Source: Mobula hypostoma | Taxonomy: Eukaryota | Direction of reading: 5' to 3' | Assembly: GCF_963921235.1 (NCBI RefSeq) | Contig: NC_086108.1 | Coordinates: 62,622,001-62,686,000, forward strand | Length of the DNA stretch: 64,000 nucleotides | Shown: positions 8,900-64,000 of the stretch, in pieces | How positions within the stretch are numbered: position 1 is the stretch's first letter | Layout of the letters: each line of letters starts with the position of its first letter | Position numbers and translations under genes: made by a program | The notes under the pieces: generated by a model | The model's database searches: none | What the model saw: the letters and a program-made list of their open reading frames with translations, nothing else | What the model was told of the DNA's origin: nothing

Positions 8900-9680
8900 A
8901 ACACAAAAGATTCTGCAGATGCTGGAAATCAAGAGTAACACATCGAGGATGTTGGAGAAACTCAACAGGCCAGGTAGCATCTATGGAAAAGAATGAAGTG
9001 TTAAATTTTCAGGGCTGCACCCTTCATTAGGACTGGAAAGGAAGAGGCAAGAAGTCAGAATAAGAAAATAGGGGAAGGGGAAGGGGTACAAACTAGAACC
9101 TGATAGGTGAAAGGGGGATGAAGTGATAAACTGGGAGCCGATAGGTAGAAAAGGTAAAAGGCTGAAGAGGAAGGAGTCTGATAGGAGAGGAGAGTGCACT
9201 ATGGGAGAAAGAGAAGGAGGAGGGGCACCGGGGGAGGCGATAGGCAGTTGAGGAGAAGAGAAGAGGTAAGAAGGGATTCAGAGTGGGGAATGGAAGAGGA
9301 AAGGCGGAGGGGGAGAATTAGCAGATGTTATGGAAATTGATGTCCATGCCGATTGATGGGCTGAGATCCTTCATCAGTGCTGGAAGTGAAGGGGGCAGAA
9401 GCCAGTACTGGAAGGTGGGTGGAGGGGAATGAGTACAAGCTGGCTGGAAAATTGGTGATATCAGGTGAGGGGGAAGGTGTGTGGGTGGGGCAGGAGGTTG
9501 AAGTAAGAAGCTGGGAGGTGATAGGTGGGAAAAGTAAAGGAGTGAAGAAGAAGGAATCTAACAGGAAAAGCCAATGGACCATGGAAGAAAGGGAAGGAGG
9601 AGGGGAATCAGAGGGAGGTGCTGGGCAGGTAAAGAGAAGAGGAGGAGTAAGGGGGGTAAACAGAATGGGAAATGGATAAA
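8900..9680 (-). mobile_element. Two tandem Penelope-like pLTR fragments
   Basis: Purine-rich units similar to 23510-23990 repeated head-to-tail; mutated hammerhead remnants at ~8997-9034 and ~9355-9380. Confidence 0.75.
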
Positions 9681-11329: not shown

Positions 11330-13771
11330 TGCAGGCAGATAGATTGGCACCTGATTAGTTCCAAGGGTTTTAGACGGGGCAGAGTTTGTTAAGTGTCTCC
11401 AGGATGGATTCGTGTCACAGTATGTTGACAGGCCGATAAGGGGGAATGCCATACTAGATCGAGTACTAGGTAACGAACTGGGTCAGGTCACAGATCTCTC
11501 AGTGGGTGAGCATCTGGGGGACAATGACCACCACTCCCTGGCCTTTAACATTATCATGGAAAGGGATAGAATCAGAGAGGACAGGAAAATTTTTAATTGG
11601 GGAAGGGCAAATTATGAGGCTATAAGGCTAGAACTTGCGGGTGTGAATTGGGATGATGTTTTTGCAGGGAAATGTACTATGGACATGTGGTCGATGTTTA
11701 GGGATCTCCTGCAGGATGTTAGGGATAAATTTGTCCCGGTGAGGAAGATAATGAATGGTAGGGTGAAGGAACCATGGGTGACAAGTGAGGTGGAAAATCT
11801 AGTCAGGTGGAAGAAGGCAGCATACATAGGTTTAGGAAGCAAGGATCAGATGGGTCTATTGAAGAATATAGGGTAGCAAGAAAGGAGCTTAAGAAGGGGC
11901 TGAGGAGAGTAAGAAGGGGGCATGAGAAGGCCTTGGCAAGTAGGGTAATGGAAAACCCCAAGGCATTCTTCAATTATGTGAAGAACAAAAGGATGACAGA
12001 ACTGAAGGTAGGACCGATTAGAGATAAATGTGGGAAGATGTGCCTGGAGGTTGTGGAAGTGAGCGAGGTCCTCAATGAATACTTCTCTTCGGTATTCACC
12101 AATGAGAGGGAACTTGATGACGGTAAGGACAATATGAGTAAGGTTGATGTTCTGGAGCATGTTGATATTAAGGGAGAGGAGGTGTTGGAGTTTCTAAAAT
12201 ACGTTAGGACAGTTAAGTCCCCGGGGCCTGATGGAATATTCCCTAGGCTGCTCCACAAGGTGAGGGAAAAGATTGCTGAGCGTCTGGATAGGATCTCTAT
12301 GTCCTCGTTGTCCACGGGAATGGTACCGGAAGACTGGAGGGAGGCGAATGTTGTCCCCTTGTTCAAAAAAGGTAGTAGGGATAGTCCGGGTAATTATAGA
12401 CCAGTGAGCCTTACGTCTGTGGTGGGAAAGCTGTTAGAAAAGATTCTTAGATTAAGATCTATGGGCATTTAGAGAATCATGGTCTGATCAGGGACAGTCA
12501 GCATGGCTTTGTGAAGGGCAGATCGTGTCTAGCAAGCCTGATAGAGTTCTTTGAGGAGGTGACCAGGCATATAGATGAGGGTAGTGCAGTGGATGTGAGC
12601 TACATGGATTTTAGTAAGGCATTTGACAAGGTTCCACATGGTAGGCTTATTCAGGAAGTCAGAAGGCATGCGATCCAGGGAAGTTTGGCCAGGTGGATTC
12701 AGAATTGGCTTGCCTGCAGAAGGCAGAGAGTCGTGGTGGAGGGAGTACATATGGACTGGAGGGTTGTGACTAGTAGTGTCCCACAAGGATCTGTTCTGGG
12801 ACCTCTACTTTTTGTGATTTTTATTAACGACCTGGATGTTGGGGTAGAAGGGTGGGTTGGCAAGTTTGCAGATGACACAAAGGTCAGTGGTGTTGTAGAT
12901 AGTGTAGAGGATTGTCGAAGATTGCAGAGAGACATTGATAGGATGCAGAAGTGGGCTGAGAAGTGGCAGATGGTGTTCAACCTGGAGAAGTGTGAGGTGG
13001 TACACTTTGGAAGGACAAACTCCAAGGCAGAGTACAAAGTAAATGGCAGGATACTTGGTAGTGTGGAGGAGCAGAGGGATCTGGGGGTACATGTCCACAG
13101 ATCCCTGAAAGTTGCCTCACAAGTAGATAGGGTAGTTAAGAAAGCTTATGGGGTGTTAGCTTTCATAAGTCGAGGGATAGAGTTTAAGAGTCACAAGGTA
13201 ATGATGCAGCTCTATAAAACTCTGGTTAGGCCACACTTGGAGTACTGTGTCCAGTTCTGGTCGCCTCACTATAGGAAGGATGTGGAAGCATTGGAAAGGG
13301 TACAGAGGAGATTTACCAGGATGCTGCCTGTTTTAGAGAGTATGCATTATGATCAGAGATTAAGGGAGCTGGGGCTTTACTCTTTGGAGAGAAGGAGGAT
13401 GAGAGGAAACATGATAGAGGTATACAAGATATTAAGAGGAATAGATAGAGTAGATAGCCAGTGCCTCTTCCCCAGGGCACCACTGCTCAATACAAGAGGA
13501 CATGGCTTTAACGTAAGGGCTGGGAAGTTCAAGGGGGATATTAGAGGAAGGTTTTTCACTCAGAGAGTGGTTGATGTGTGGAATGCACTGCCTGAGTCAG
13601 TGGTGAAGGCAGATACAGTAGTGAGGTTTAAGAGACTACTAGACAGGTATATGGAGGAATTTAAGGTGGGGGCTTATATGGGACGCAGGGTTTGAGGGTC
13701 GGCACAACATTGTGGGCCGAAGGGCCTGTATTGTGCTGTACTATTCTATGTTCTATGTTCTATGTTCTATG
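11330..13771 (+). mobile_element. 5'-truncated CR1 LINE, relatively young
   Basis: End of the endonuclease domain (ILDRVL...GDNDHH), RT domain, 3' UTR gggccgaagggcctgtattgtgctgta and (ttctatg)n tail at 13744-13771. Confidence 0.95.
11412..13695 (+). pseudogene. CR1 ORF2 (endonuclease end plus reverse transcriptase), frameshifted near 11830 and 12450
   Basis: KSPGPDGI, NYRPVSLTS, DFSKAFDKV, VPQGSVLGPLLF, KFADDTK, RPHLEYCVQFWSP spread over three ORFs. Confidence 0.95.
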
Positions 13772-16235: not shown

Positions 16236-19174
16236 TTGGTGCAAAAATCACAATCAGAGTACGAGAGGCGGTCCACTGTGTTCCTTCGCTGAGGTCGGAT
16301 AAGGGCTGTGCAGACTAGATAGATCAGTGTGGATGGAATGAGCTGAAGGACCTCTTTGCTTTATAGCTGTATGATTTTACTGTAATTGTAATAAGCATTT
16401 GATAAATGAGAAAAGGTTTTACAATACAGAACCATCCCTTTAATTTAACTGTGAAAGTCACCAACTCCTGTGGTTCTGGGACAAAGATCAGTGGGAGGTC
16501 TTAAAGGTCACACAAAAAGTAGGTCACTGGCTGTATGCAGTTGTTCTCTCTGCCTAGGTAGAAGAGAAGTTGGGAATGGAATGATGTCACATAAAATTTG
16601 GCACTGAAACACTTCACTTTTTTTTCTTCTGATTCACAGCAACAAAACTAAAAGGGGCAATTTAAACAGCACAAAACAAATTTGACAGAATGCATCAGTC
16701 AGGGTTATCTCATCTATCACATTTTGAACTCAAACATTATCAGCCTTTACTGATCTTGATTACAAACTTCTTTTATTTATTTGTATGATTTTAAATTACT
16801 TCAAAGGCAGCTCACATATGCTCTGACTTGGGAATACAATATCACACTTTGCAGACCAGGTCAAAAACAGTGGTCTGCCTCCAAAGGGAAAATTCAAAAC
16901 AGATGTGTAACAAAGAGCATTCTATAATACACTGGGTTGTGAAATGTCCCTGAGGGAGAAAAATAAGCAAAAACAGCATGATCTCTTAGCAACATGTGCT
17001 ACAAAGTAAGCAACAGCTTGGTTGGCATCTGGAATTTGAGGGTTTTTTTCTTGCTCTTTGCACTGAAAAAAAAATAACATTGGCATGTTTGGCCAAGTCA
17101 ACATTTTCTACTATTGATTATAAATATACAAAACTTTCTTTGTGTATTTTTGGACCAATTGAAAATCAAGATTATTTAGTATCGGGAAATTGAAATCAAT
17201 CATGTGTAGTAAACTAGCGCAAACATGGGGTTGTGGGGCTCTCCTGTGGTTTTTCTTTGTGATTGAAAAAATATCTCAAATTAACCCAGTCGACAAAAAG
17301 TAAGGGTGTGTGTATGGATCAGTGATACGTAATAATTTTGTGCTGTTTTCAAATGAAAGGAGAAAGGATACCAGTAATACACTTTCCCATTAGACCACAA
17401 ATCTCATGATCTCTTTATCAAACCTAAATATAACAGGCTGTAACAGAAGCAGGTCAAAAATTATCAAATAAAACCTTCCTCTGACTCCTGCCCTTCATTG
17501 GTTGCATCATCTGCTTACACGCTGTTGAAACGTGCTTCGTATGCAGCAGCAAAGAGACTTAAGTCAAAATTATGATGCAAGGTATCTGAATTAAAAGGTT
17601 CAGAGTACCAAGTCTAATATACATATTCTCCAGTCTTTTGTTCTCCAGATAGCAATACATGGAAGTTCAAGACTGGCAGTATTTCCAGGCAATGGAAAGT
17701 AATACCTGCTCTGACCATCAAAAGTCTTTTTATGTATTTTGCCCAGGTTTCCACTTGTCATGTTAGTCAGTGGATGAGCAGCTGGCAGCTGAGGTTGGAG
17801 AAAGGGTACTAAATAGATAAATATAAAAATAAATGAGGTGACTATTTGAATCATCATCTGCAAATCAGTCGGAGCGAAGGAAGTGACATGACTTAATTCT
17901 CTGGAAATCTGGTGGATTAGCACGTATTCAAATTCTTGAGTGTTAACAACAATATTTGGAAAGCTGCTATCACCTATCCCTAAAGACAGATGAGAAATGG
18001 ATCCTTTATCAAGAGCTGATAAATCCAGTGGAAGGATCATCCAAATAATAAAGTTTGAGGAAAATAAATTCCACATGCAGTTGGTATTTGTGGCAGAGTA
18101 GTAAGTGAGGTTGAGTATACACACCCACTGCTTGGCATTTCTGTTAGAAGAGGATGTTGAGCCTGCAATCCAACTGGCAGCAATATGAAACTGTAGCTGA
18201 TCCCTTGGACTGTTCAAATTGGGAACTGAGGCCCCCAGCTTCCAGGTTGAAGCTCCTTGCTGGGCAATGTCCACCAGGTGAAAAAGCTTCTGTTGTTTGT
18301 GTTAATTGAGCGTTTCAATGCCTCAGTGAAAAGTTTAGCATAATATGTAATTACTGCTCTCAAATTTTATCCATTGAAAAAGAATAATATACCTGCTTCT
18401 GATATTGCGCAGATTGATTCTGGAAGAGGTTTTCAATGGGGAAACATGGAACCAAGTTTTTGCCTGATGCTGGCCTCCTAGGCCTGAGTCAACGTAGAGG
18501 TAAATTTCAGAAACCTAGCTTTAAACATATGTTTTTTTGCACTTAACATTATACAACGGTGAGCAGCTTTCTGCACTACTATCCCTTATTTTACAGTGAG
18601 ATGTACGCTGATGTGATGATGTGACCTAATAATAGGATCATGCAAAAGTTTAACACAAAAACATCCACTCTTCTCAAAAATTACTATAAATTGCACATTG
18701 CACATTTAGACAGAGATGTAATACAAAGATTTTTACTCCTCATGTACATGAAGGATGTAAGTAATAAAGGCGATGCTGTAAGCAATCTTTTCTGTAGAAA
18801 AACTAAAAACAAAAATCAGTAAGTTATTAATAAGATTGTGATTATTCATGATAATGCAAATTATAAATAGCTATTATGGAGCAAGAGTTTGATTGTCAAA
18901 GTTGCCAACCTTTTTCCCATTTGCATGTTTTCTGTGTTATTAATTACCGCATAATGATCCACAGAACCCTTCATGTCTAGGAATATTTTTAAATGTGACT
19001 AATCAACTTTCTAACTTGACACTCCTGTTCAAGAGACTGCACAGTATCTGAAACAGGAAATGGAACAATTATTCTGAGGGAATACATGGAATTTGAGAAC
19101 AGTAATTATTTGTTACACTTAACTTTATGATCAACTTAAAAAGTAAAAAAATTAACTTAATTAATTTACAGTGG

Positions 19175-19462: not shown

Positions 19463-22400
19463 TAGTCATGTTGACCTTCCAACATGGTTAGGGAATCTCC
19501 ATAGAATATTTTCCCAACAAGTAATATGGTTTTGGAAATGCTTCACAGATTCCTCATTTTCAGCATAAATTTTAAAGTAATGTTAAAATACTTTGAAAAA
19601 GGTGACATTTTTATTTTTTCCCCAAAGCATAGCACTCTGGAATATATGATGACTAAAAGTTTTAAATCTGTCTACATACTTAGAATAAAAAAATAAGAAT
19701 TAACCCTTTTCCTTCATAGTTTAGATAAAATAAACAGAAGTTGTTCAGGACCATTTATTTGGATTTGCTGAAAAACATCTTAGCAGTTTTGGTACTAGGG
19801 ATGGGACTAAGGACACAGCCATGTTCGGTGGCAGCTTCACAACACCCAGTGTCCAACCCAGGTCAAGACACAAGCTTTACCTTTGGTTTTGTTTCCCACA
19901 TCATTACTCCTTCAATTCTTCCCTCGGAAAACCCCTTTCCCATTACTCATTACTCCTGTTCTCACAGGAAAATTCTTCTACAGTCTGAAAGTCTTTTCCC
20001 GAAGAATTGGTAATAGGCCCTGAATAATGTTGGTAATGGGGCAGAGGATATTTCAAAAGATGCTTGATCTTTCTGGTTGAAGACATCACATTCACAGCAT
20101 TCAACAATGCTAAACACACTCCCGCATTTTTGCAATAGATTCCTTCATTAAAGGTTTAAATGCTTGGATACTTGAACAACAAAATAATTCTATTTTCATG
20201 AGAGTGAGGTCAGAGGCTTTGTCTTCAGTTGTCGGTTCACAGCAAGCTTGTAATCTCATTTAGTTTTCTAAAATTCCATCGAAAGATTCCACCTGTATTT
20301 GATACAGAACACTGCAGCTGGAACAACTCATGATTACTGGTCCACCAGTGTGTTGGGACCATTTAAGGAAATCAGACAGTCATCCAGAGCATTACATGTA
20401 GTTCCTGTTAACCCTTAGAACTCTAAATGGCCCTTGCTGCTCACATAAGTTTTAAATTTCAAAATATTAATTGGCATGATCGTCTGAAAATGTTGGTTTT
20501 GATTAGCCATAGAATAGTGATTAATTCAGAAATAACAAGCTTGATTTTTTTTATTCCCCTACCCCCAACCTATTTTATCTCCTTAAATCAACAGTTTACC
20601 ATGTAACACAATTTCATGGGTGGTAATATTTTACCCCCTGGCTACTTTCCATCTGTGAGTTCAATATTACAGCTCCAGATGCCCTAATTTGGTGTTTTCA
20701 AAGGCCATAAACAGCATTTATCAAAATCATTAATAATAAGTCTGTGACAAAGATAATTTGTAATTCTTCATAGAATATCTCCGAGAATTCCATATCCAAT
20801 TTTCCTGCTGTGTGGGACTGCATTGGCCAGACAATTAGACTGTAGGACTATATCTGTCCAGACATAACAAAAGAATCACATGGAAAGGTTTTTCCCACCC
20901 CACCTGTTATGTCTGGTATCACCCAAGAACCCATCTTTAGTTCCTTTCTGCTGTAAATTATCATCGACCACTCTGCTCTCTAGTGACCTCATCTAAAAAT
21001 ACAGTTTTTGTCTCCATATATAGGCTGAAAATACATTGAAGATATTGAGAATTTTTGCTACATTAAAGGCACAAATAAGTTGCTGTTGAATTTGAATTCT
21101 TCCTCATTTACAATGGCTGGGTAATTTCCAGTGAAGGGAGGACAGATCTTCCACCCACATACTCTTCCCCATTAAATGACTCTGCTGGGGGAATTCCTGG
21201 ACTAATCTGGAAAGTTCCCCAAGTCTTAGAGTAACATAGGATCTTCTACATTACATGGCATCACTTCAAGTTATTGAGGACAGCACTTCAGAGGCATCTT
21301 GGTGACCAGTAGAAACCATTAGAAAATGAATATATGTCTAGAATTTGGAAAGTTGGTGCAGATAGCTGCTCTCTTGTAGCTGAAGTTGTGTCCCTGATGT
21401 GTCTCAGCTTTTCTTGTGAATCTTCAAATCTTATGAAGGGCTTCCTTCTTCATTGGCACTGTCATGTACAGACAAACCAAAGGAAGCAAGACCATGGGAA
21501 GCTTCAGTCATTACGGCCTTCAGATGAGTGAAAGTGGGCCATACAATCTCTTTGTGAGCCTTCATTTTTTAAAGTAAGTTTTTAATAGGACCTCTTACCA
21601 AAGGAGCCTTGAAAAGCATGGTCAAAGTATCGTACAGGTGTGGGATTGTTCAGGCATATGAGGCAGCTGGCTGTTGGAGGTAAACTTGTGGTGATGCTGA
21701 TGACTCTGTTTCCCTGTTAATTAAATCTCCTACTGATTCCACTCTGATTAGCACTCAGGGGCATTTGTGAGTGTGATCCAAACACTGAGGCACAAAGTAT
21801 TTCAGGATTATTAACATTGCATCTCTATTCCTGAAAGGCACCACTCTGTGTTGCCATTGTGAAAAATTAAATGGAAAAACCATACATTTGTTTGGTGCTG
21901 CTTCCCAGCTGTAGACTCGTGTTTGACACTCACTACGATAAAAAACAGATGGTGCTATGTGCAAACTGACACTGCAAATGTGCAAAATTTATAATGCTGC
22001 AAATATAATCAGATTTTACAATTACTCTAGTGGAGTGTCGTCAGGGATTCTCCATAATTCTGGCAAATCTATGTAAATGTTGTATTCGCTTTCATTCTGA
22101 TTTTTACCCATCATATATCAAAGCTACAGAAGATGATTGGTTGAGTCTCAGGAAATTTAAGGCTAACAAATGAACTGGAGTGGACCATGACTTATTGTTG
22201 AAACAACAGGTTGTCTTCACAGTTTGGTTTAGAGTCAAGTATATTATATGCTCCTACTTTCAGACCCTGAGCTCTGCTAAATCAGTTTATTTCTGTCTCA
22301 GAATGGTAACGTAATTACTGGCTTCATTGACCAGTAGATTTAATGGAAGGAAATAATGAACTACTCTATGTTCCCTGCCTTAACTTAGGTTAAAAGTATG

Positions 22401-22554
22401 CATGAACTGTAATGCCCATTTCGCACCTAAACACAAGGTGAAACTTTTGTGTAATTTCATCATAAAAGGTGGACACTTGGATGAGGTTCTGGAGGACCAA
22501 ACATGCTCATCAGAAGTTATAGCAAAATGAGAAGGCGAGAAAACCATGGGCACA

Positions 22555-22725: not shown

Positions 22726-22907
22726 CTCCTACAAAATCCTACCTTGGCGCCTCACCATGGTGTAGGAGTGACACAGGCTGAACATCAGCGAAGTATGGCA
22801 GAGATTCATTCTCTGGCAGGTCTAACCTAGACGTGAAGGTGATGTTCCACCGGGGTACTACTAGACTGGATCTAGTAGTAGGATCGTGGCTAGCTAAGTC
22901 AAGGAGG
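22726..22907 (+). ncRNA. Candidate HDV-like self-cleaving ribozyme at the RTE 5' end
   Basis: P1 ctcctac/gtaggag, P2 ccttggc/gtcaagg, P3 gcc/ggt, L3 tcaccat, P1.1 ca/tg, J4/2 gCtaa, all in HDV order; starts at the first base after the TSD. Confidence 0.75.
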
Positions 22908-23607
22908 TAAGCATGCCTTTGCTACTTTGTAGGTTATGCCACTTCAGGCAAAGGCTGCACCCAACGAGGACGCCGGCAGCAGGGCGTCTGATGGTGTCTG
23001 TGGCAGGTGAATCCAAAAGGGTCAGTGGTACAGCCACCTTGGTGGCACGCGGAGGAACCGGAGTGTTGGTCAACGGATGGCATCACTAGGCTAGTTAGTT
23101 GTCACTGCGGGGAACTTCCTTATCCGCTAAGTCTGTTACACTCCTGTGTACCACTGAGCATCAGATCTGGAAGCCCAGAGAGACTGTATGGTGGGGGCAT
23201 GACACCGTCTGTCTTATTACTGTGCAAGGTGTGTTGGAGTAGAGTTTCTGGATGGTGTGGAAAGCCCTGTGGCGATGGAGCTCATGTGACGGCAGCAGGC
23301 TTGAGGAGCTGGAAGCTGCTAGCATGAACTCTGCACATAGGCGGCTCACATAAGATGGCCGCTACCTTGTTGAGTTGTCTGAGCAACAACAGGTTGAGGC
23401 AGCTATGGTGAGTGTCCGGGCAGCCCTTTTTAGGGAAAGCACTGCCCACCCTGGAAGGGGAAGCCCCTAGAAAAGGTGGGGCAAAGAAAGCTTGCTCAGA
23501 TTTCAACGTAAACAACAGGAATTCTGCAGATGCTGGAAATTCAAGCAACATACATCAAAGTTGCTGGTGAACGCAGCAGGCCAAGCAGCATCTATAGGAA
23601 GAGGCGC

Positions 23608-23643
23608 AGTCGACGTTTCAGGCCGAGACCCTTCGTCAGGACT
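23608..23643 (-). ncRNA. Minimal type I hammerhead ribozyme motif
   Basis: Minus strand reads agtc-CTGACGA-agggtctcggcct-GAAA-cGTC-gact. Confidence 0.85.
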
Positions 23644-24222
23644 AACTGAAGGAAGAGTGAGTAAGGGATTTGAAAGCTGGAGGGGGAGGGGGAGATGCAA
23701 AATGATAGGAGAAGACAGGAGGGGGAGGGATAGAGCCGAGAGCTGGACAGGTGATAGGCAAAAGGGGATACGAGAGGATCATGGGACAGGAGGCCTAGGG
23801 AGAAAGACGGGGGGGGGGTGACCCAGAGGATGGGCAAGAGGTATATTCAGAGGGACAGAGGGAGAAAAAGGAGAGTGAGAGAAAGAATGTGTGCATAAAA
23901 AGGAGTAACAGCTGGGGTACGAGGGGGAGGTGGGGCCTAGCGGAAGTTAGAGAAGTCAATGTTCATGCCATCAGGTTGGAGGCTACCCAGACGGAATATA
24001 AGGTGTTAACGGGATCCCACCACTAAGCACATCTTTCCCTCCCCCCCTCTCTCTGCATTCCGCAGGGATCGCTCCCTACACAACTCCCTTGTCCATTCGT
24101 CCCCCCCATCCCTCCCCACTGATCTCCCTCCTGGCACTTATCCGTGTAAGCGGAACAAGTGCTACACATGCCCTTACACTTCCTCCCTTACCACCATTCA
24201 GGGCCCCAAACAGTCCTTCCAG

Positions 24223-24549
24223 GTGAGGCATCACTTCACCTGTGAGTGGACTGGGGTGATATACTGCGTCTGGTGCTCCCGATGTGGCCTTTTATATATT
24301 GGTGAGACCCGACGCAGACTGGGAGACCGCTTTGCTGAACATCTACGCTCTGTCCGCCAGAGAAAGCAGGATCTCCCAGTGGCCACACATTTTAATTCCA
24401 CATCCCATTCCCATTCTGACATGTCTATCCACGGCCTCCTCTACTGTAAAGATGAAGCCACACTCAGGTTGGAGGAACAACACCTTATATTCCATCTGGG
24501 TAGCCTCCAACCTGATGGCATGAACATTGACTTCTCTAACTTCCGCTAG
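24223..24549 (+). pseudogene. Penelope GIY-YIG endonuclease domain (5'-truncated ORF)
   Basis: GVIYCVWCSRCGLLYIGETRRRLGDRFAEH...EQHLIFHLGSLQPDGMN. Confidence 0.9.
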
Positions 24550-24844
24550 GCCCCACCTCCCCCTCGTACCCCAGCTGTTACTCCTTTTTATGCACACATT
24601 CTTTCTCTCACTCTCCTTTTTCTCCCTCTGTCCCGCTGAATATACCTCTTGCCCATCCTCTGGGTCATCCCCCCCCCCCGTCTTTCTCCCTAGGCCTCCT
24701 GTCCCATGATCCTCTCGTATCCCCTTTTGCCTATCACCTGTCCAGCTCTCGGCTCTATCCCTCCCCCTCCTGTCTTCTCCTATCATTTTGCATCTCCCCC
24801 TCCCCCTCCAGCTTTCAAATCCCTTACTCACTCTTCCTTCAGTT

Positions 24845-24880
24845 AGTCCTGACGAAGGGTCTCGGCCTGAAACGTCGACT
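24845..24880 (+). ncRNA. Minimal type I hammerhead ribozyme motif
   Basis: Stem I agtc/gact; core CTGACGA 24849-24855; stem II agg/cct; GAAA 24869-24872; GTC triplet with predicted cut after 24876. Confidence 0.85.
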
Positions 24881-25011
24881 GCGCCTCTTCCTATAGATGC
24901 TGCTTGGCCTGCTGCGTTCACCAGCAACTTTGATGTATGTTGCTCAGATTTCACCTGGCTGGCTCACCGCGGCCAGCGGGTCTTCACCACTGCAGTAAGA
25001 AGCTTAAGAAG

Positions 25012-28000
25012 ATGAAACTGATTGTTGCCACATGGAATGTGCGAACAATGCTGGATAGCAACTCAAGACTGGAAAGGAGAACTGCTTTGATAGCTAAGGA
25101 ATTGGCAAGATACAACACTGATATTGCTACGCTCCAAGGGACAAGGATTGGAGGACAAGGCCAGATCCAAGAAAATACTCATACTTTCTTTTGGATTGGG
25201 AAAACCAACAAAAGGAGAGATGCAGGTGTGGCCTTCACTGTTTCCAACAAGATTGCTAGCAAATTGCCAACACTTCCGATAGGATCATGCGACTACGTGT
25301 TCCCATTGGAAAGGATCATTTCCTGAGTTTGATCAATGTGTATGCACCAACCATGGCATATTCCGACAAAGACAAGGAGTCCTTCTATCAGGAACTGGCT
25401 GAAGTAACCGATAATGTCCCTAGGGCAGACAAGCTGCTCATCTTGGGAGATTTCAATGCCAGGGTAGGCAAGGATCACAGCACCTATGAAGGTGTCATTG
25501 GCAAATTTGGTAAAGGAAAAAAGAACACCAATGGTGAACTTATACTAAACTTTTGAGCTCAGAGGGAATTGTGTGTTACCAGCACTTTCTTTTGTCAACC
25601 CGAGAAGAACTACTTCACCTGGATGCACCCAAGGTCAAAGCATTTCCACTTGCTTGACTACGTTGCGACTCGCAGAGCAGATATGCCAAAGGTTCTATCG
25701 ACAAAAGCAATACATGGAGCAGAGTGCTCATCTGATCATTACATGGTACGATCACAACTTACTTAAACTGCTGCTGCCAAGGCGAAAAACACCCAGTGAA
25801 GCACCCAAGAAATTGGATGTCAACAAGTTGGCCAGTGAGGAACATCAGAGGAGACTTGTCACAGCATTGACATTATCTCTCCAAGAAGACAAAGACCCTC
25901 TCAATGACCCAAACAATATTGAAGAATGCTGCAAGCAGCTCAAGAAAACCATCCATTCAACTGCAAGTGCGATGCTTGGCCACCCAAAGAGAAAAACTCC
26001 TGACTGATTTCAAGAACAAAATGATTCAATTCAAGAACTGTTGGAGATGAAACAAAGGCTTTATATGTGTCACTCGAAAGAGAACTCTGAAAGAAGCAAA
26101 GCAGCATTTAAGGCCATGAAAGCCAAAGTTCAAAGGGAGATCAGGGCTATGAAGAACAACTGGTGGAATAAGAAAGCAGAAGAACTGCAAGCAATGTCAG
26201 ACAGGAATGACTACCATGGGCTCTTCTCAGGACTGAAAGCTATCTATGGTCCAAGAAGCAATACAGTTGCCCCAGTAAAAACTGCAGATGGGAGCAATCT
26301 ATGCACTGACAGGAAAGACATCATTGAGCGCTCCTGTAACCTTCTAAACCAACAAGGTGCAGCTGACCGCACTGCATGTGAAAGGCTCACAACTAGACCG
26401 GTAAGAGAAGAGCTATGTGGACTCATCACTATGACAGAACTTAACAAGGCTTTAAAAGATACCAGAAGTGGTAAAGCACCCGGGCAAGATGGCATTCCAT
26501 CAGATGTACTGAAGCAAGGTGGTCTTGCTCTGAAGACTGAACTGTTGAACTTATATAATGCTTGTTGGCAGAGTCAATGTCTCCCTCAGGACTTCAAAGA
26601 TGTGCTGATAGTCACCATCTACAAGAAGAAAGGCGACCGTAGTGTTTGTGGAAACCACCGAGGAATCTCCCTTCTGTCCACAGCTGGCAAGTTTATGGCA
26701 AAGATACTGCTCAGCTGGCTCAAGATCGTCTCAGAAGATGTGCTTCCTGAAAGCCAACGTGGCCTTAGGGCTGGAAGAGCAACCACTGACATGATTTTTA
26801 CTTTGAGGCAACTGCAGGAGAAGGCAGTAGAACAGCAGCAAACATTGTACATTGTCTTTGTTGATTTCTCACAAGCATTTGATACGGCGGACAGAGAAAC
26901 ACTCTGGGAAGTGCTCAAAACTTATGACTGTCCAGATAGGCTGGTTACGATGATCAAACTGTTTCCTGAGAGCATGTCTGGCAAAGTATCTATCGGAGGA
27001 GACGTCAGCGAAGCCTTCACCATCAACCACGGGGTAAAACAGGGATGCGCTCTTGCTCCAACTTTGTTCACACCATATCTTGCTGCAGTTTTGGAAATAA
27101 TGGACCATAATTTGGACAAAGGTGTGTACATAGGACTCGCTCAGATGGAAAATTGTTCAACCTGTCAAGACTCAAGGCCTCAACCAAATCAAGAGAGATA
27201 TGTGTCAGAGAGCTTGTGTTTGCAGACGACTCAGCCCTGGTTGCTACTGACGTTAATGTGATTCAAGAAATTGTAGACCGGTTCTCATTTGCTGCCACTC
27301 TTTTTGGCCTAAGAATCAATGTCTCCAAAACTGAACTTCTGTACTAGCCTCCTCCTCTGGGTAGTCCCAGTGAGACCCAACCACCAGTCCTATCGGTCAA
27401 TGGGGTAGTGCTGAAATGTTCTGACTCTTTCACATACTTAGGAAGCGCTGTGACCAACACCAACTCATCAGATCTGGAAGTTGAGAGGAGAATTCAATCA
27501 GCTTCAAAAGTCTTTGGTGCTTTGCAGAAGCGACTTTGGTCTCACCACGACATTAAAATGGCAACCAAGGTCAAAGTGTATAACACAGCTGTTTTACCAT
27601 CTCTGTTTTATTCAACTGAAACGATGATATTGTATCAGAAGCACATCAAGAAATTGACCAAGACACAACACAGGCATTTATGCCAAATATTACACATCAA
27701 GTGGCAAGAGAGGGTACCAGATGTGGAGGTGCTCAAACGTGCTGGGACAGTCAGCGTAGAATCACTCATCACAGCTTCTCAGCTGCGTTGGACTGGTCAC
27801 GTCACAAGAATGAGTGATGATCGTTTACCCGAAGCTGTTTTCTCTGGCGAGCTACATGAAGGAAAGAGGAAGTATGGTGGTCAGAAGCTGCACTACAAGG
27901 ACATGCTCAAGCACCAGATGAAGAACACTGACATGAATGTCAACCCCTGGGAGAAAGATGCTCTGGACAGAAGAAGTTGGCACTGCGTTGTCAAGAAGTC

Positions 28001-28160
28001 AATCCCAGCTATCGAGGAGAAAAGGCAGAAGAAATATGAAGCAGGGCATGAATACAGACATTTGGTGCTAGACCAGTCAAATCACAAATGCAATCGATGT
28101 CAGAGGCCGTGCCGATCCAATGCTGGTCTTGTGGCCCATAAGCGTGTCTGCAGAGACTAA
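25012..28160 (+). pseudogene. RTE ORF: APE endonuclease, reverse transcriptase and C-terminal zinc finger, with several frameshifts and stops
   Basis: ATWNVRTM, NVYAPT, LGDFNARVG, SDHY, GKAPGQDGI, RGISLLS, GVKQGCALAPTLF, FADDSAL, CNRCQRPC...LVAHKRVC. Confidence 0.93.
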
Positions 28161-32491: not shown

Positions 32492-34746
32492 ATAACACTA
32501 CATGTACTCTTGTATAGTTTATCCAGACCATGAACCACTTGAGCCTTCCTCCTTCTTTTCTCATCAAGATTTCTTTCTCCTTAAACGTTAATCTAGTCTC
32601 TCTAACATCTCTGTATTAGGTGAAATTGTGTTCCATATGGGTAGCCTTTTCACCTTCATTAATGGTCAAGCTGTACTTGCTCCACGTCGCCCTGTCAGTG
32701 TGACTATCCTTGAAGCCTTGCAGCTTTAGCTGCAGCCCCATGAGGCAATCAATCTGTAAATGCGAGCTAGGCCTCCGACAGCAGCCCCTGAGGCCTCACT
32801 TCAAAACTCCCAAAGCACAGAGGCCAAAAAAGGCTGTTATTTTGAGATTAGGATTTCAGAGGACAGTTATTTCTATATCCAGAGAGAGTTGAGAATATGA
32901 ATCCTTCCACCTTTAGGAACAAGTGTATTAAACAAATTGGACCATGTTTGTACAAACAAACATGGTACTTACAAAGTAATCCCATGCCCTGATGTTGGCC
33001 TTTCTGATCACATCTCCATAATGTTAATCCCAGCATACTGAGCGCTGCTGAAAACAGAGACCAATCAAGAGGACCATCATCTGAAGAATCACTCACAGAT
33101 TCAGGACGGTTTTGAAAGGGCAGACTGGCCAGGGTTCAAGGAGGCTGTAACAAGTGGAGAAGAGACAAACCTCGAGGAATATGCCTCATCTGTCATTGGC
33201 TACATCAGTAAGTGTGTAGACGACACTGGTACCTCAAGAAACATCATCTTATGGCCCAGCCAAAAGCCCTGGTTGAATGCAGAGGTGCACTCCCTACCAA
33301 AAACCCGAGACACTGCCTTCAAGTCCAGTCACAGAACAGCTCTCAGAGTAGCCAGGAGAAACCTCATCTTAGGCTTCTGTGAACAAAAAATTCAGGAACA
33401 CCTGTCTGACAATGATCCCTGGTGTATGTGGTTTGCCATCCAGGTCATTACTGACTATACAAGGAAAAATAGCATCGACTGTACCAGTGATGTCTCCCTC
33501 CCTAACACTCTAAACAACTTTTTTGCACGCCTTGAGGAATGCAACACAATACCAGCCACAAAAGCTAACCCTCTCCTAGATGAGCAGCCACTGTCAGTAA
33601 TAGGAGCAGATGTGAGAAGGATTCTGCAGAGAATCAACCATCATAAGGTGACTGGCCCACCCCAGACAGCATCCCAGGCCAAGAACACAGGGAATGTGTA
33701 CACTAGCTCACTGATGTCTTCATAGACATCTTCAACACTTCACTCATCCAGGATGCTGTCCCTACATGTTTTAAATCATCCACCACCATCCCTGTACCAA
33801 AAAACTCTCCAACTTCAGAACTAAACGATCACTGCCCAGCGGCACTGACGCCAATCTTCATGGAAGTGCTTTGCTTGGCTGATTATGGCACATATCAAAA
33901 ATTCCATTCCTGCCATAATGGTCACTCACCAAATGTTTACTGACAGAATCTCTCTACGACAGATACCACAGCATCGGTCATGCACCTGGCCCTGACACAC
34001 CTAGAAAACAATGACACTTATGTCAGAATGCTGTTTGTGAGTTTCTGTTTGGCATTCAACACTGTTGTCCCAGAGAGCAACCCCCTACTCTTTGGTGCAG
34101 TTGGGTGCTGGGCTTCCTAACTAACAGCCCTGGGATAGTCAACATTCACAGCTGCTCCTCCGTCTCCATCATCCTTAACACGGGTGCCCCCTGGGCTGTG
34201 TACTGAGCCCACTGCTGTACACTCTGCTCACACATAGCTGCATGGCCAAACACCCGAGTAATCACATGGTCCACTTCACTGATGACATGACAGTGGTGGG
34301 GTTCATCTCAAATAATGATGAGACGGCCTACAGAGTGGAGGTGGGAGATCTTGAGGCCTTATGGCAGGCAAATAACCTCTTCCTTAATGTCGACAAGATA
34401 AAGGAGATAGTTAATCAACTTCAGACAAACTCGCATCACTCACACACCCTGCGAGCAGTTTCAAACTCCTGGGAGTGCACATCACACACAACCTTTCATG
34501 GTCCCAGAATACATCCTACACAGTCAAGAAACACCTCTACTTTCTGACAAGGCTGAAAAGAGTTGGACTTTGCAATTTCATACACACCTCATTCCTCAGA
34601 AAGCATCCCTGATAAGCTGCATCACACAGAAATTGCACTACAGTGGACAGGAAGGCTTTACAATGGGGGAGTCAAAAGTGCTTAACACATTATCGGCGCC
34701 AGCCTGCCCACCATATATATACATGAAGGTGCCAGAAAGGGGCCAG

Positions 34747-36015: not shown

Positions 36016-36682
36016 CCCAGTAACATTGGAAAGGATCCCACACTACCTGCTCATGGACTGGTAGTCTCACTCCCATTAGGGAGGAGGCTTCGTACAGTAG
36101 TATCCACACCAGGATCATTAGACTCAGTAAGTTACTTTCTCCAAGTAGTAAGTCTGATCAACACCTCCACCTACCAACTCCACCGTACTATAATATTTCC
36201 TCTTAGTCACCTTATATAAAGCCTAGCATCACTTTATGGACATACGATCCGTCTATGTGTATAAGCTATTTCATGTATTTATATTTATTTTGTTTTTAAA
36301 TTATTATTGTGTTTTTTACGTTTTGTGTTGTTTTTGTGCTGCCTCTGATCCGGGTTAACAATGATTTCGTTCTCCTTTACACTTGTGTACAGGAAATGAC
36401 ATTAAACAATCTTGAATCTTGAATCTTAAAATAATGGGCAAGATCAAGTTTGATAATTACAAAGGCCTTTGAAATGTTTCCAAATATTTATGATGATTGG
36501 TGAAATTTAAAAAATGTACAAAGGAATTAAAAATATGTACATAGAAGTTTGAAAGCATTTAAATAAAATAATAAATTCAAAATAATAAAATTTAGTTACA
36601 TTATTAAAATTAATGAAAAATATTGAGTAAAATTTATAAGCAAATTACTTCCTAATTTACATTGACAACCCAGGGTGTATCT

Positions 36683-36887
36683 CATACATGAGAAGGTCTG
36701 CAGATGCTGGAAACCAAAAGCAACACTCACAAAATGTGAGAGGAACTCAGCAGGCTAGACAGCACTATGGAAAAGAGTAAACAATCCAGTCCCGATGAAG
36801 GGCCTTGGCTCGGAACGTTGACCATTTACTCTTTTCCATAGATGCTGCTTGGCCTGCTGAGTTCCTCCAGGATTTTGTGTGTGTTGT
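36683..36887. mobile_element. 205-bp fold-back Penelope-derived mini-element with a mutated hammerhead in the loop
   Basis: Inverted arms ~36721-36781 / 36825-36886; TSD ccagggtgtatct (36670-36682) / ccaaggtgtatct (36888-36900). Confidence 0.82.
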
Positions 36888-37044
36888 CCAAGGTGTATCT
36901 ACCCCTTTAGCTCAGCATAACTGAGTTTTGTCTCAGGTCTCAGTGCTCATTTGGATAGTAGGGTAGGAAGTTGGGCATGCACCGTCTAATCTCCAGAGTG
37001 TGCCAGAGTTCTCCAACACTGGATCAGCAAGTTTGCAACTGGAC

Positions 37045-38912
37045 CAGCAAATTTGTGTATGACGCCAAGATTGGACAGCAAGGAAGACTATTAAAGCTTG
37101 CAGCAGCATCCAGACCAGCTGGAAAAATGGGCTGAAAAATGACGGATGCCATTTAATGCCCTTGTTTAATGCAAACTAGTGTGAAGTGCTGCACAGAGGA
37201 TATATCAGAGTAGAACTTACTCAGTGAAAGGTAGGGCACTAAATTATATATACTTTATTTTATATACTCTATTGTCGCCAAACAATTGGTACTAGAACGT
37301 ACAATCATCACAGCGATATTTGATTCTGCGCTTCACCCTGGATTACAAATATTAAATATTAAAGATATTAAAAATAGTTAAAATTAGTAAATATTAAAAA
37401 TATAAATTATAAATCATAAATAGAAAATAGAAAAATGGGAAGTAAGGTAGTGCAAAAAAACCGAGAAGCAGGTCCAGTTATTTGGAGGGTACGGCCCAGA
37501 TCCGGGTCAGGATCTGTTCAGCAGTCTTATCACAGTTGGAAAGAAGCTGTTCCCAAATCTGGCCGTACGAGTCTTCAAGCTCCTGAGCCATCTCCCGGAG
37601 GGAAGAGGGATGAAAAGTCTTTTGGCTGGGTGGGTCGTGTCCTTGATTATCCTGGCAGTACTGCTCTGACAGCGTGCGGTGTAAAGTGAGTCCACAGACG
37701 GAAGATTGGTTTGTGTGATGTGCTGCACCGTGTTCACGACCTTCTGCAGCTTCTTTCGGTCTTGGACAGGACAACTTCCATACCAGGTTGTGATGCACCC
37801 TAGAAGAATGCTTTCTACGGTGCATCTATAAAAATTAGTGAGGGTTTTAGGGGACAGGCCAAATTTCTTTAGTTTTCTCAGGAAGTAAAGGTGCTGTTGG
37901 ACCTTCTTGGCAGTGAACTCTGCTTGGTTGGACCAAGTCAGGTCATTTGTGATATTGGCCCTGAGGAACTTAAAGCTTCTGACCTGTTCCACTTGCGCAC
38001 CGCCGATGTAAATTGGGTCGTGCGGTCTGCTACTCCTTCTGAAGTCAACAACCAATTCCTTCGTCTTGCTGACATTGAGGGATAGGTTATTGTCTTCGCA
38101 CCATGCCACCAGATTCTTAATTTCCTCTCTGTACTCAAACTCATCATTACCCGAGATACGGCCTACAATTGTTGTGTCATCAGCAAACTTATATATTGAG
38201 TTTGATGGAAACTATGTAGAAGTTATGTAGAAGAACAGAGGAAGCTGGTAATTCAGTTGCATTATTACTTGAAAGTGGGGTCAAGGGTTATAAAGAGAGC
38301 TTTTTGCATGTTGTCCTTTATAACTCAAAGTATTGAAAAAAGGAGTTGGAATGTTATATTGAAGTTGTATGAGATGTTGGTGCGGCCTAATTTAGAGTGC
38401 TGTGTGCATTTCTGGTCACTTACCTATAAGAAAGATATCAAGAAGATTGAAATAGTGCAGGGAAAATTTACAAGCATGTTTCTGGGACTTAAGGACCTGA
38501 GTTACATGGAAAGGTTGAATAGGTTAGACTTTATTTTGTGGAGCATAGGAAAATGAGAGGTATGCAAAATTATGAGGGATATAAATAGGGTTAATGCAAG
38601 CAGGCTTTTTCAACTGAGGTTGGGTGAGACTAGAACTAGAGGTCATGGGTATAGGAGAAATGACAAGAACCTGAGGGGGAACCTCATGAATCAGGGAATG
38701 GTATGAGAGTAGATTGAGCTACCAATGAAGGTGATGGATGTGGGTTTGATTGCAGCATTTAAGACAACTTTAGATATATATACATTGATGGCAGGGATAT
38801 GGAGGACCATGGTCTGGATGCAGAATGATTGGAATAGGCAGAATAACAGTTTGGCACAGACTAGATGGGCTGAAGAACCTTTTTCTGTGCAGTAGTGCTC
38901 TATGATTCTATG
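37045..38912 (+). mobile_element. Decayed CR1 3' portion split by a Rex1 insertion
   Basis: KF..DAK and WAEK motifs before 37240; ORF 38257 with LVRPNLECCVHFWS; tail tatgattctatg. Confidence 0.8.
37245..38210 (-). mobile_element. Young 5'-truncated Rex1/Babar LINE
   Basis: 200-aa open ORF 37507-38109 (WCEDNNLSLNVSKTKELVVDFRR...NSFFPTVIRLLN); KFADDTT upstream. Confidence 0.92.
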
Positions 38913-51930: not shown

Positions 51931-52802
51931 CCCACTTGAAACATTGCCGCTTCAGTGAGGATTTTTGAAATGTGTACATCCAGTATCGAAGAGCCCTTTC
52001 ACGAGAGAAAGTAAAATTGGGGAGAAAAATTATTTGACAGTGCCACGAAATGGTCATGTGCAATAGCAAGCAGTAACTTCTCTGAACTTCACTGCTGCAG
52101 CTGTGTACACAAGGACACACCAGGAAAATTTAACTGTTTAAATATTCTGGTTCACTGTAGAATTTACTTTTGACTTGGGCTGGGTTTGGCATCAAAGATA
52201 TTCTGAGGAATTAAAAAGAATCTGATGCCAGTGACATTTCAATCCAAGGAATGCTGTGTGGGAGCAGACTGCAATTCAGTCTATCTCAGAACATTTGGCC
52301 ACCTCTGAAGTGTTATTAAAGTGACAATTTTGATGTGTCATGTTGGAAAGGTCAACGAAAGTGAAAGAAGTAGGCCACATAAGCAAGGAATTTGCTTATC
52401 AAGTTTCCTGACTGTGTTGTGTACGATTAGTCCCCAGCTGTCACACTTTACTTGTGCCTGCTTTACTGCCCACAAACCTTCTAGCCTAAGCCCTCCAGGG
52501 ACTTTCGTTTGTCAAAGAGAGCATGTTGTGTGCATCTGATACTGTCAGTTTGGCAGCAGAACATTTCTCGCTGCATTTCCAAATCTCCCTACCCTGAATC
52601 AGCACACAGACAAGCGATTAAAGAAAGATACCCACTGTGGCAGCTGAGTCACATGAAAAGCTGGAATTGTTTAAAATCACATAAAATGTTTCCCTCTTTA
52701 AAAGAAAGTACCATAAAGTCCTTGTTTCAGAAAAACCTCTTTGTAACTGAGAATTTAAAGAAACAATCCCCACAAAAGATACACAACACACATAAAAAAT
52801 AA

Positions 52803-53078
52803 GATGGAATATAAGGTGTTGATCCTACAACCTCAGTGTAGCTTCATCTTGACAGTAGAGGAGGCCGTAGATAGACATGTCAGAATGGGAATGGGACGTG
52901 GAATTAAAATGTGCGGCTGCTGAGAGATCCTGCTTTCTACTGTCAAGATGAAGCCACACTCAGGTTGGAGGCACAACATCTTATATTCTGTCTGGGTAGC
53001 CTCCAACCTGATGGCATGAACATTGACTTCCCTAACTTCCGTTAATGCCCCACCTCCCCTTTGTACCCTATCCCCTAT

Positions 53079-53109
<31 letters not shown>

Positions 53110-53530
53110 TCTATCTATTTATTTATTTATTATTTACTCTCTTTTTTTTCCTCCCTCTGTCTCTCTCACTATAACTCCTTGCCCATCCTCTGGGTTTTTT
53201 CCCCCCTCCTCCCCCTTTCTTTCTCCCTAGGCCTCCCGTCCCATGATCCTCTCCCTTCTGCAGCCTTGTATCCCTTTTGTCAATCAACTTTCCAGCTCTT
53301 AGCTCCATCCCTCCCCCTCCTGTCTTCTCCTATCATTTCAAATATCCCCCTCCCCCTCCCACTTTCAAATCTCTTACTGCTTCTTCTTACAGTTAATCCT
53401 GACGAAAGGTCTTGGCCCGAAACATCGACTGTACCTCTTCCTAGAGATGCTGCCTGGCCTGCTGCGTTCACCAGCATTTTTATGTGTGTTGCTTGAAATT
53501 CCAGCATCTGCAGATTTCCTTGTGTTTGCA
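52803..53530 (+). mobile_element. Penelope-like 3' fragment with short inverted 5' segment and hammerhead motif at 53395-53430
   Basis: 52803-52860 is the reverse complement of ~52937-52993; aatc-CTGACGA-aaggtcttggccc-GAAA-catc-gact. Confidence 0.85.
53076..53135. repeat. (ATTT)n microsatellite
   Basis: Direct reading; includes a few atct variants. Confidence 0.9.
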
Positions 53531-53879
53531 CCCACAAAAGATACGAAGCATTTTTTGTGTGATTGATAATGATGCACACAAAGTTTTAAAAAGCAATAGA
53601 ATTGTATAAATTAAAATGTTCTTGTTCACCCGGCAGATTGTAGAGTCTCAAGGGTGGAGGGAAAAGGAACCTAGTTATATTCGTGTTGCTCATAAAACAT
53701 GAGAAATTTGTTTTTCAGGAAAAGGTACATAATACTTACAGTTCTCAACCAAGAGTGATTTTAAACATTAGATTGATATTGATATTTACAGAAACCATGC
53801 AGAATGACATAATTCACTTAACCCTGGACTTGTGATCAAGTCTTTGGATGATATGAAGATAGGTGGAGGGGCATGTAGT

Positions 53880-57500: not shown

Positions 57501-57764
57501 GGATGAAGAAAGAAGTAAGCCTTGGGAATAATTTTTGGTGTGAAGAAATTCCACAAGATGCTTATGGCAAATGTTTCCCTCTCTTTAAAGGTTCAAAGGT
57601 TCATTTCATTGTTGAAGTCTGCATGTACAATACGACTCTGATATTTCTCTTCTCCAGATAGCCATGAAATACAGAAAGACCATACATCAACTCCCCACGT
57701 ACGAAAAAGAAAAAAAACAAAACACACAGACCCCAAAATTCCACACCCCCCGCAGAAACAAGCA

Positions 57765-58228
57765 GCAACAATAGCAACAACTCTCCACACTCACAGAAAA
57801 AAACAGTGATAATAACAATCCCAAAGCCTCTTACGCGGAAAAAAAAACAGTGACAATAACAATCTCCGACCCACCCACTCACAGAGAAAAATAGTGACAA
57901 TAACAATCCCCGACCCCGTCACTTACAGACAAAACAGTCACAATAACAAACCCTGAATCCCTCACTCACAGAAAAAAACAGCGACAATAACAATCCCCAA
58001 CCCCCTCACTCACTGATAAAAACAGTGACAATAACAATCCCCAACCCCGTCACTTACAGACAAAACAGTCACAATAACAAACCCTGAATCCCTCACTCAC
58101 AGAAAAAAACAGCGACAATAACAATCCCCAGCCTCCTCACTCATGGAAAAATTAGTGACAATACCAATCCTCAACAAATTCACTCGCAGAAAAAGCAGTG
58201 ACAATAACAATCCCTGACCCTCTCACTG
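57765..58228. repeat. Minisatellite, about 11 units of 43-44 bp, attached to a retroposon-type tail (57590-57700, minus strand)
   Basis: Unit approximately aaaaacagtgacaataacaatccccaaccccctcactcacag. Confidence 0.9.
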
Positions 58229-58352
58229 AGAGGCAGGACTCGTCCCGTAATGTCGACTGTACTCTTTTCCATAGATGCTGTCTGACCTGCTGAGTTCATC
58301 CAACACTTTGTGTGTGTTGCTTGGATTTCCAGCATCTGCAGATTTTCTCTCA
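58228..58352 (+). mobile_element. Penelope pLTR end fragment inside the Gypsy element
   Basis: tgtcgactgtactcttttccatagatgctg...ccagcatctgcagattt. Confidence 0.75.
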
Positions 58353-62394: not shown

Positions 62395-63018
62395 GAGCAG
62401 AAAATACTGGAAGTACTCAGCCAGCCAAGGCAGCAGCTGAGGAAAAAAAATAGTTAATGTTTCAGGTCTGACACCCTTCATTACAAGTGAGAAAGAGAAA
62501 AACAAGTTAGTCCAGGTAGCAGAGAAGATGAAGGAGGACAATGAGTTAAATAAAAAGAATTTCTCTAATACGGCGAGTTCACGTGACAGTTAAAGAGCAG
62601 TTAAGCCCATGTAATGTTTTGCAAATGTTATAAGACTGGTGTAATGTTGTGAGTGTGGCCAGTGGGGACGTGCTGAGCAAGCCAGAATATACAAATGAAA
62701 CCAAAAGGAAAAATCAGGATGGCAGGCAAAAATGGCCAGCCCTAACAGAAACAGAAAGAAAGTATGGATTACCCAACATTGGAGAATTTGATCTTGATTC
62801 TTGTTGGTCGTAATGTCCCCAGATTAGGTGTTTTTCTTTGGGCCTGCCTACTATTTCCATTTTCTGACCAAATTTCACAACATTACAGAGACTTGCTTCT
62901 CTCTTGTTTACAGCTTGTTTCTCTTTTTCCCAGTTCAGTCTCAGACCTGAAATGTTTACTGTTTCACTTTCCGCAGATGTTGTTTGACCTGCTGAGTGCT
63001 TACAGCATTTTCTGGCTT
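62395..63018. mobile_element. Old fold-back Penelope-derived element
   Basis: Inverted arms ~62395-62530 / ~62895-63018, e.g. aatgtttcaggtctgac vs ctcagacctgaaatgtt. Confidence 0.6.
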
Positions 63019-64000
63019 TTTTATTTATACGCTGGAAGGCTTCAGAGGCTAAAGCAAGAACATCTGAATAAGAGTGAGATGGAGAGTTAAAGAGGCTAGT
63101 TGAGATTTTGCGTATGTACTGTATGGAATTGAGGAGATGACATGTTGTTCTTCAAGCCCACGTGGTGCCTCTTTGGGACACCCCATGGGGCTAAAGATAG
63201 AGTGATCAGAATGGGAACAGGATGCAGGCAATTTAAAGCTCATGAGGGTATTCTCCACAACAATTATTCCATTTGCATTGGATTTCCCCATTAAAAAACA
63301 GAAGACCGCCTGAGAATCGAGTGCAGTTTATTCAATTAATTACTGCTTCATTTGAAGAGTAGTCAGAAATCTAGGCAGCAACAAGAAAGGGGAAAAGAAA
63401 AGAGAGCACACAAATGTGCAAAATGATGCAATGAGAAAAGGAGTGGTTATTGCTGATAGGAACCAAAGCATCCTGGTTCCATTAGATGACTGAAAGATAA
63501 GGGAAGCAGAGATGCCTGGTGTTGTTGCAACATATCGCACCATTGATAAGGTTCAGAAAATGTACCAATTTTGCTTCGCAGACCAAGATAAAGCAAAATG
63601 ATGAGAAATCATTACAAGGAGATGACGAGCAGCTTGGGATGTGTTTCTTCATTTAAAAAAATGTAGTATTCTGTGAGAATTTGATGGAGAAAAAAGGGAG
63701 AAATCATTTTCTTCTTTTAATTAATTTTTTTATGAGTTTCTACATTACAACAAAAAAACCCACCAACAAAAAGGAGCTTTGTACAGTGCGAACCCAACGT
63801 GTCTGATGTACAATTCATAACAGTAAAGAAAAAGCACCCAAAATAAAATCGTATAAAGTTAGTTTCCTCCCCACCCTCCCACTACGCACTCCAAGCCAAC
63901 CATTACGATATAAAGAAAAGTTAATCAGAGCTTTTGTCACCACAGAGCTGTGAATATAATAAAAGTGTATTGCCTACTACTAAACTATAATATATTTCAC

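Follow-up and report, generated by a model that had tools for sequence, protein, structure and literature searches.

A fold-back Penelope-like insertion in Mobula hypostoma carries one minimal hammerhead motif on each strand

Two identical 36-nt hammerhead motifs, one per strand, were found within a single inverted insertion of a Penelope-like element (PLE) in a 64,000-nt stretch of Mobula hypostoma DNA (contig NC_086108.1; hereafter, the window). We consider it very probable that this is a dead-on-arrival insertion of the Neptune type, in which a truncated copy and an adjacent inverted copy, with a tail on one side, are bounded by a target site duplication (TSD). On this reading, the ribozymes at the locus are passengers that probably do not cut. 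Both the insertion layout and minimal hammerhead ribozymes (min-HHRs) on opposite strands have already been described, and the locus is another, well-preserved case.

The whole insertion occupies 23506-24944. The original prediction of a fold-back Penelope insertion was borne out, and its extent is larger than the 23608-24880 then given. A 937-nt main copy on the plus strand (24008-24944) is joined to an inverted 502-nt copy on the minus strand (24007-23506), which repeats the last 466 nt of the main copy and adds the tail. An exact 14-mer forms the left (23492-23505, plus) and right (24940-24953, plus) TSD copies; the first 5 nt of the latter coincide with the final 5 nt of the element end, a possible primer-template pairing. 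The 38-nt PLE tail (23506-23543, minus) is present on the inverted arm and absent from the right arm, and it matches the extended 3' ends of the copies at 53530, 58350, 36683 and 8901. It is followed by the inverted, more strongly 5'-truncated element end (23544-24007, minus), which equals 24479-24944. The copies meet head to head at 24007/24008, where a 6-bp palindrome, GTTAAC, is located (24005-24010). The unduplicated part of the main copy (24008-24478, plus) makes a 471-nt hairpin loop, and the right arm (24479-24944, plus) contains the ORF end, the 3' UTR/pLTR and the tail-less end. Both 3' ends face outward, one at the tail-less site and the other 38 nt further out.

The arms (464/466 nt) are 99.1% identical, with two substitutions and one 2-nt indel; one of the differences is a CpG-type change. 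Arm divergence was 0.43% (0.05-1.55) versus 0.93% (0.37-1.91) for the flank, set against the split between organisms A and B. No microhomology was detected at the inner junction 24007/24008, as judged from the loose contig ends of the family: in the family, the sequence preceding 24008 has C as its last letter, and past 24007 it goes on differently. On the outer side, a contig of a paralogous host LINE ceases to align exactly at 23505. Joints to the "opposite strand" at 24007 and 24478 were considered as new inversions and rejected, as they correspond to family copies reading through.

The ORF fragment (24010-24549, plus) encodes the C-terminal 179 aa of a PLE protein, comprising the linker, a GIY-YIG domain with CCHH and the stop, and has no start and no RT. 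The GIY-YIG endonuclease matched PF01541 (E value 8.3e-05, above the cut-off), and the CCHH residues C89, C92, H111 and H127 were invariant in all ten aligned sequences. The RT was truncated away at this locus; relatives with 43-94% identity continue into RT motifs, and three of the six scanned showed RT-region PF00078 matches, below the cut-off. A search among longer proteins gave 28 matches in 420 candidates, the best of which came from sharks and rays (Mobula, 93%; Hypanus, 82%). The GIY-YIG domain with CCHH, the Cys linker and the RT-bearing relatives bear out the Penelope-like origin that had been proposed. The linker has the form C46-x4-C51-x2-C54 and thus the CX2-5CxxC pattern which, located between RT and EN, defines Neptune and is common to Nematis (PMC8557442). 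In the available part of the bioRxiv preprint, the vertebrate PLEs are Neptune and Poseidon, and Nematis is not given. Judging by these motifs, the element appears to be a linker-bearing EN+ PLE, most likely Neptune.

Summed contig depth in two DNA runs was 2.5-16.5 million on the element versus 16-69 on the single-copy flank; this sum is not a copy number, and it shows that the PLE family is very abundant. Two further runs, presumed to be RNA, were rich in family-like sequence. In these runs the single-copy flank 22000-22497 was uncovered and no listed contig piece crossed a junction; neither of these two observations is informative on expression. At 23551-23912, the variant letters of the window accounted for 14-46% of depth in organism A and 1-19% in organism B, hinting at a subfamily that expanded in the lineage of organism A. 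In addition, five annotated ray proteins with host-gene names (P0003, P0004, P0011, P0025 and P0027) contain pieces of the PLE ORF, reflecting either mis-annotation or exonisation.

The insertion sits inside a dead LINE, upstream of its ORF. Downstream of the insertion, this host LINE (24954-28160, plus) encodes an APE endonuclease and an RT interrupted by several stops and frameshifts; in a Pfam scan that took in 16 ORFs of the window, it matched PF03372 (E value 3.4e-05, just under the cut-off) and PF00078 (3.8e-21). From its motifs, we take it to be RTE-like. Its 5' part probably runs from ~22750 to 23505, and contig depth is at repeat level from ~22750. Elsewhere in the window, LINE RT remnants were found at 12451-13695 (plus) and 37507-38211 (minus), the latter additionally matching ALKBH8_N (PF09004). 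Two stop-free frames, 17600-18301 (minus, 233 codons) and 33042-33725 (plus, 227 codons), had no Pfam match, and 11 tandemly arrayed units, each of 43-44 nt (57720-58235), abut the PLE 3' end at 58211-58350.

Similar structures have been reported for other PLEs. An inverted pLTR, a 31-bp tail and a 9-10-bp TSD were given as the typical structure (Arkhipova et al. 2013, PMC3846280), an inverted 5'-truncated copy with a 30-40-bp tail at one end was described by Craig et al. (2021, PMC8557442), and the same combination of inverted pLTR, tail and TSD was reported for PLE insertions in PMC8969392. Like the complex insertions of EN+ PLEs, the M. hypostoma locus is arranged head to head with 3' ends outward and an inverted 5'-truncated neighbor copy, and has a one-end tail of 30-40 nt, a short TSD and a retroelement target. 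It differs from them in lacking a full ORF and a direct pLTR tandem, in the length of its TSD (14 bp, and 13-14 bp across the three cases of the window, versus 8-10 bp in the rotifer cases cited) and in its junction palindrome (6 bp versus 18-38 bp). The Poseidon element PAc of Anolis (Frangieh et al. 2024, PMC11167929) also has two alternative, tail-separated 3' ends, a hammerhead just upstream of the tail and target strands that can both be extended. However, PAc belongs to Penelope/Poseidon, whereas the family studied here has the Neptune/Nematis Cys linker, and inverted insertions are not discussed in the available part of that paper. Rearranged Penelope copies of Drosophila (PMC3681739) likewise contain long inverted repeats capable of forming dsRNA; siRNAs matching the inverted regions were found in transgenic flies, whereas the present locus is known from DNA sequence.

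On the reading that we favor, the endonuclease of the element would have made a staggered cut of ~14 nt, and a single source copy, or one young subfamily, would have supplied the element sequence gained by both target 3' ends. In the simplest case, reverse transcription may have been primed from the tail-less site on one strand, where the 5-nt match may have helped, and from the tail site on the second strand, the tail being delimited by these two start sites. The two truncated products would then have been joined bluntly at 24007/24008. In PMC11167929, both target strands were shown to be cut and extended by a PLE protein, with the tail delimited by two RT start sites. An equal layout would arise if a single cDNA were copied by snap-back and then trimmed asymmetrically; this route is close to the self-priming and EN-resolution ideas of PMC3846280 and PMC8557442. 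In the left arm, all seven listed sites that depart from the family majority are common to both arms (other letter, 54-86% in X1 and 81-99% in X5; 40 variants listed of 167), which argues for a single source copy or a single young subfamily behind the two arms, or for later homogenisation. The arms are not plain copies of each other, since 38 nt are private to the left arm and 471 nt to the right. Because the hammerhead is located in the terminal repeat, any inverted arm longer than ~100 nt duplicates it onto the other strand.

A profile search revealed 12 family 3' ends in the window. When a 19-nt stub (52783-52801) was included, six ends were tail-less, five were tailed and two were assigned to neither class. 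A TSD search over ten ends yielded a credible TSD for three, all of them head-to-head, and none for the other seven, including the head-to-head pair 62398/62911. The insertion at 36670-36900 is a short, older head-to-head insertion of a related PLE end with a 13-bp TSD (one mismatch), a tail on the left arm and a decayed hammerhead on the right arm only. The head-to-head insertion at 52769-53544 has a 14-bp TSD and a 3-nt overlap at the inner junction (52936-52938); its left arm, represented by the 19-nt tail-less stub before the gap, has lost ~430 nt. In each of the three fold-backs (23506, 36683 and 53530), the arm with the lesser 5' extent is the one that carries the tail, which is not significant. 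Old PLE ends were also observed head to head, ~420 nt apart, at 62398-62490 (minus) and 62911-63049 (plus).

The two motifs are minimal type I hammerheads at 23608-23643 (minus, predicted cut between 23612 and 23611) and 24845-24880 (plus, predicted cut between 24876 and 24877), separated by 1,201 nt. The reverse complement of the former is identical to the latter at 36 of 36 nt, as originally predicted, and the 5' end proposed at 24877 agrees with a cut after C24876. In the plus copy, stem I is formed by 24844-24848/24877-24881 and stem II (helix II) by 24857-24860/24865-24868. CUGACGA is at 24849-24855, the unpaired A at 24856, GAAA at 24869-24872, ACGU at 24872-24875 and C17 at 24876. Positions are named in hammerhead numbering (10.1, 11.1, 15.1, 16.1 etc.). 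The traits of min-HHRs were all found, i.e. the CUGANGA and GAAA boxes, an NUH site, helices I and II, an unpaired base between 9 and 10.1 (A24856) and a palindromic 15.2-16.2, in agreement with the PLE kind of minimal type I hammerhead assigned before. The ACGU palindrome does take the place of stem III: A15.1-C-G-U16.1 has no loop, so that helix III is impossible within a single copy. The cores had also been called intact, which holds for their boxes but not for the conserved G10.1-C11.1 pair. Position 11.1 is U in both copies (24868 in the plus copy and 23620 in the minus copy), and a G10.1-U11.1 wobble (G24857-U24868) replaces the pair. G10.1-C11.1 is a common min-HHR trait, rated highly conserved in PMC4209133, and the published descriptor does not include it; no data on the rate effect of G10.1-U11.1 were found in the hammerhead literature searched.

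Metazoan PLE min-HHRs (Cervera and De la Pena 2014, PMC4209133) share with the present motifs the short helix I, the full core, the extra base between 9 and 10.1, the palindromic 15.2-16.2 without loop III and the location in a terminal repeat. Dual min-HHRs on opposite strands were reported there ~100-700 bp apart, whereas the spacing here is 1.2 kb; G10.1-U11.1 and a helix II of 3-4 bp are further differences. No cartilaginous fish is named in the available main text of that paper, and a search of titles and abstract starts returned nothing relevant on sharks or twin priming.

A strict pattern composed after the motif had been seen gave two matches in the window versus 0.12 expected, and none of 100 shuffles reached two; the two matches are not independent, as both lie inside one inverted duplication. 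An Rfam scan of the window gave no matches at gathering thresholds. Selection was considered as the reason for the identity of the motifs and rejected. The arms are 99% identical along their full length, so that motif identity is uninformative on function, and the probability that a 36-nt stretch is identical between them with no selection is 0.79-0.86.

Nine older copies in the window retain CUGANGA in four cases, GAAA in five and both in two; in none are both boxes and the palindrome kept. However, the majority line of the window copies retains the core, with single copies decaying, and loss of the core from the family, which would have spoken against the original prediction, is therefore not seen. 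The hammerhead core is therefore characteristic of the family and decays once a copy has inserted; the present pair is intact because the insertion is young. Position 11.1 is C in five of the nine other copies and T in four, a mixture that fits CpG decay; neither this position (23620) nor the core appears among the 40 variants listed of 167. The old copy at 8901-9047 (minus) has AAUU at 15.1-16.1, a palindrome unlike ACGU, and its first core box is broken.

Each strand carries one sense hammerhead only, without helix III. In the best fold of the monomer (-11.0 kcal/mol versus -5.6 kcal/mol for the hammerhead-like fold), core GACG pairs with CGUC of the cleavage site with a probability of 0.98-0.99. 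The modelled active dimer reached -11.5 kcal/mol, well above both two free monomers (-22.0) and the best dimer fold (-30.3). Cleavage as a dimer, which the original prediction had drawn from related elements, is thus not supported at this locus: it requires two sense hammerheads where there is one per strand, and folding disfavors the dimer. A result on hammerhead dimers was reportedly also obtained by Lunse et al. in 2017. It should be noted that ViennaRNA undervalues the active fold, since tertiary core contacts and proteins are ignored. In PMC4209133, a single min-HHR monomer was assayed, that of S. mansoni; it showed no cleavage, and its dimers and trimers cleaved weakly. The Anolis ribozyme was protein-assisted and dispensable for insertion, and RNA-seq showed no ends at the cut in the available part of PMC11167929.

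In RNA of the whole insertion (fold of 23506-24953, -1169 kcal/mol for the plus and -1192 kcal/mol for the minus strand, ViennaRNA), each of the 36 ribozyme bases is paired with the mirror arm on either strand, and forcing a hammerhead-like fold carries a penalty of 78.5 kcal/mol in both cases. Whichever strand is read, transcription reaches the antisense arm first; an RNA that begins in the loop, past 24008, would not include this arm. The geometry of the antisense pairing that had been suspected is thus right, but its role as an off-switch is unsupported. There is little to switch off, given the single sense hammerhead without helix III, the inactive monomer hairpin and the G-U at 10.1-11.1. 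Since a sense partner in cis and helix III are both lacking, the monomer is predicted to sequester itself, the 10.1-11.1 pair is a wobble and any full read-through RNA would contain a 464-bp duplex, the ribozymes probably do not cut. Against this reading, a partner could be supplied in trans by abundant family RNA. If the locus is transcribed through, the RNA is likely a long 464-bp hairpin of dsRNA, and such a read-through product may be a substrate for dsRNA-processing or editing enzymes.

One could still envisage a conditional switch that matters to the host or the element, in which RNAs lacking the antisense arm cleave with the help of a partner in trans or a protein, and read-through RNAs are protected. 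Both cores are complete, the fold-back blocks the ribozyme strongly on either strand, family-like sequence is plentiful in the runs guessed to be RNA and a related PLE shows protein-assisted cleavage (PMC11167929). We nevertheless regard such a switch as quite improbable, because there is no dimer partner in cis, the monomer folds inactively and the active dimer model lies far above both the best dimer fold and two monomers. In addition, youth accounts for the intactness of the motifs, the window's remaining fold-backs either show a single, decayed hammerhead or lack the greater part of one arm, a selection signal was not detected and the layout follows from the usual PLE insertion pattern. 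The idea of an antisense block as a switch was absent from the titles and abstract starts searched, most subscription papers being outside this search.

An origin of the arms after insertion, by inverted duplication, template switching in replication or repair, or gene conversion, appears very improbable. The private variants common to both arms and the junction palindrome would suit it, and gene conversion between the arms would make them look younger. However, a single TSD bounds both arms and the layout recurs in all three TSD-bounded insertions. Plain duplication after insertion was rejected, as each arm has sequence that the other lacks. It is even less probable that the structure is an assembly artefact from a fold-back chimeric read. 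The inverted arms are near-perfect and no junction-spanning piece was found among the 32 contig pieces listed of >321,000, which would suit an artefact; but the arms differ at two sites and one indel, one difference being CpG-type, they end at different family-typical points and the exact 14-bp TSD bounds them within a continuous host LINE.

One ribozyme per strand is also a feature of ambisense circular replicons, and animal retrozymes derive from PLE ends (bioRxiv 10.64898/2026.07.22.740005), yet integration of a viroid- or retrozyme-like RNA, replicating as RNA with one hammerhead per polarity, can be given practically no weight and was rejected, because one sequence is duplicated in an inverted arm in place of independent motifs in a rod fold, and the GIY-YIG ORF fragment, tail and TSD are present. 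A non-LTR retrozyme was excluded likewise, as the arms are inverted, each strand has one sense ribozyme and the ORF fragment is present; with no head-to-tail unit containing two sense ribozymes, no monomer circle can be cut out.

A more speculative view, which we consider quite improbable, is that the loop-less ACGU hammerhead is mainly a signal for RNA-RNA pairing. Two template RNAs, or two units of a tandem transcript, would be joined as a double hammerhead in a dimeric PLE protein, and one RNA would prime each strand, at the tail-less site and the tail site, respectively. The outcome would be head-to-head with the tail on the shorter arm, as in the three cases here, and the fold-back copies would then become sources of hairpins that silence the family. 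The derivation of the arms from one source, the two fixed 3' ends and the predicted protein dimer and two-strand extension in PMC11167929 are consistent with this view. However, inverted insertions are also produced by Naiads, which lack canonical hammerheads (PMC8557442), mutating the core leaves insertion in vitro unchanged (PMC11167929) and three of three is not significant. This proposal, too, was absent from the titles and abstract starts searched, a search outside which most subscription papers lie.

On its own, the locus is minor, being one young member of a very abundant ray family whose mode of insertion is already known. It is, however, a clean specimen, with hardly any decay in its arms, its inner junction, its two 3' ends or its TSD, and for this reason it records how inverted PLE insertions form, a process called undefined in PMC8557442. 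If the ribozyme does pair templates, this would answer what PLE hammerheads do.
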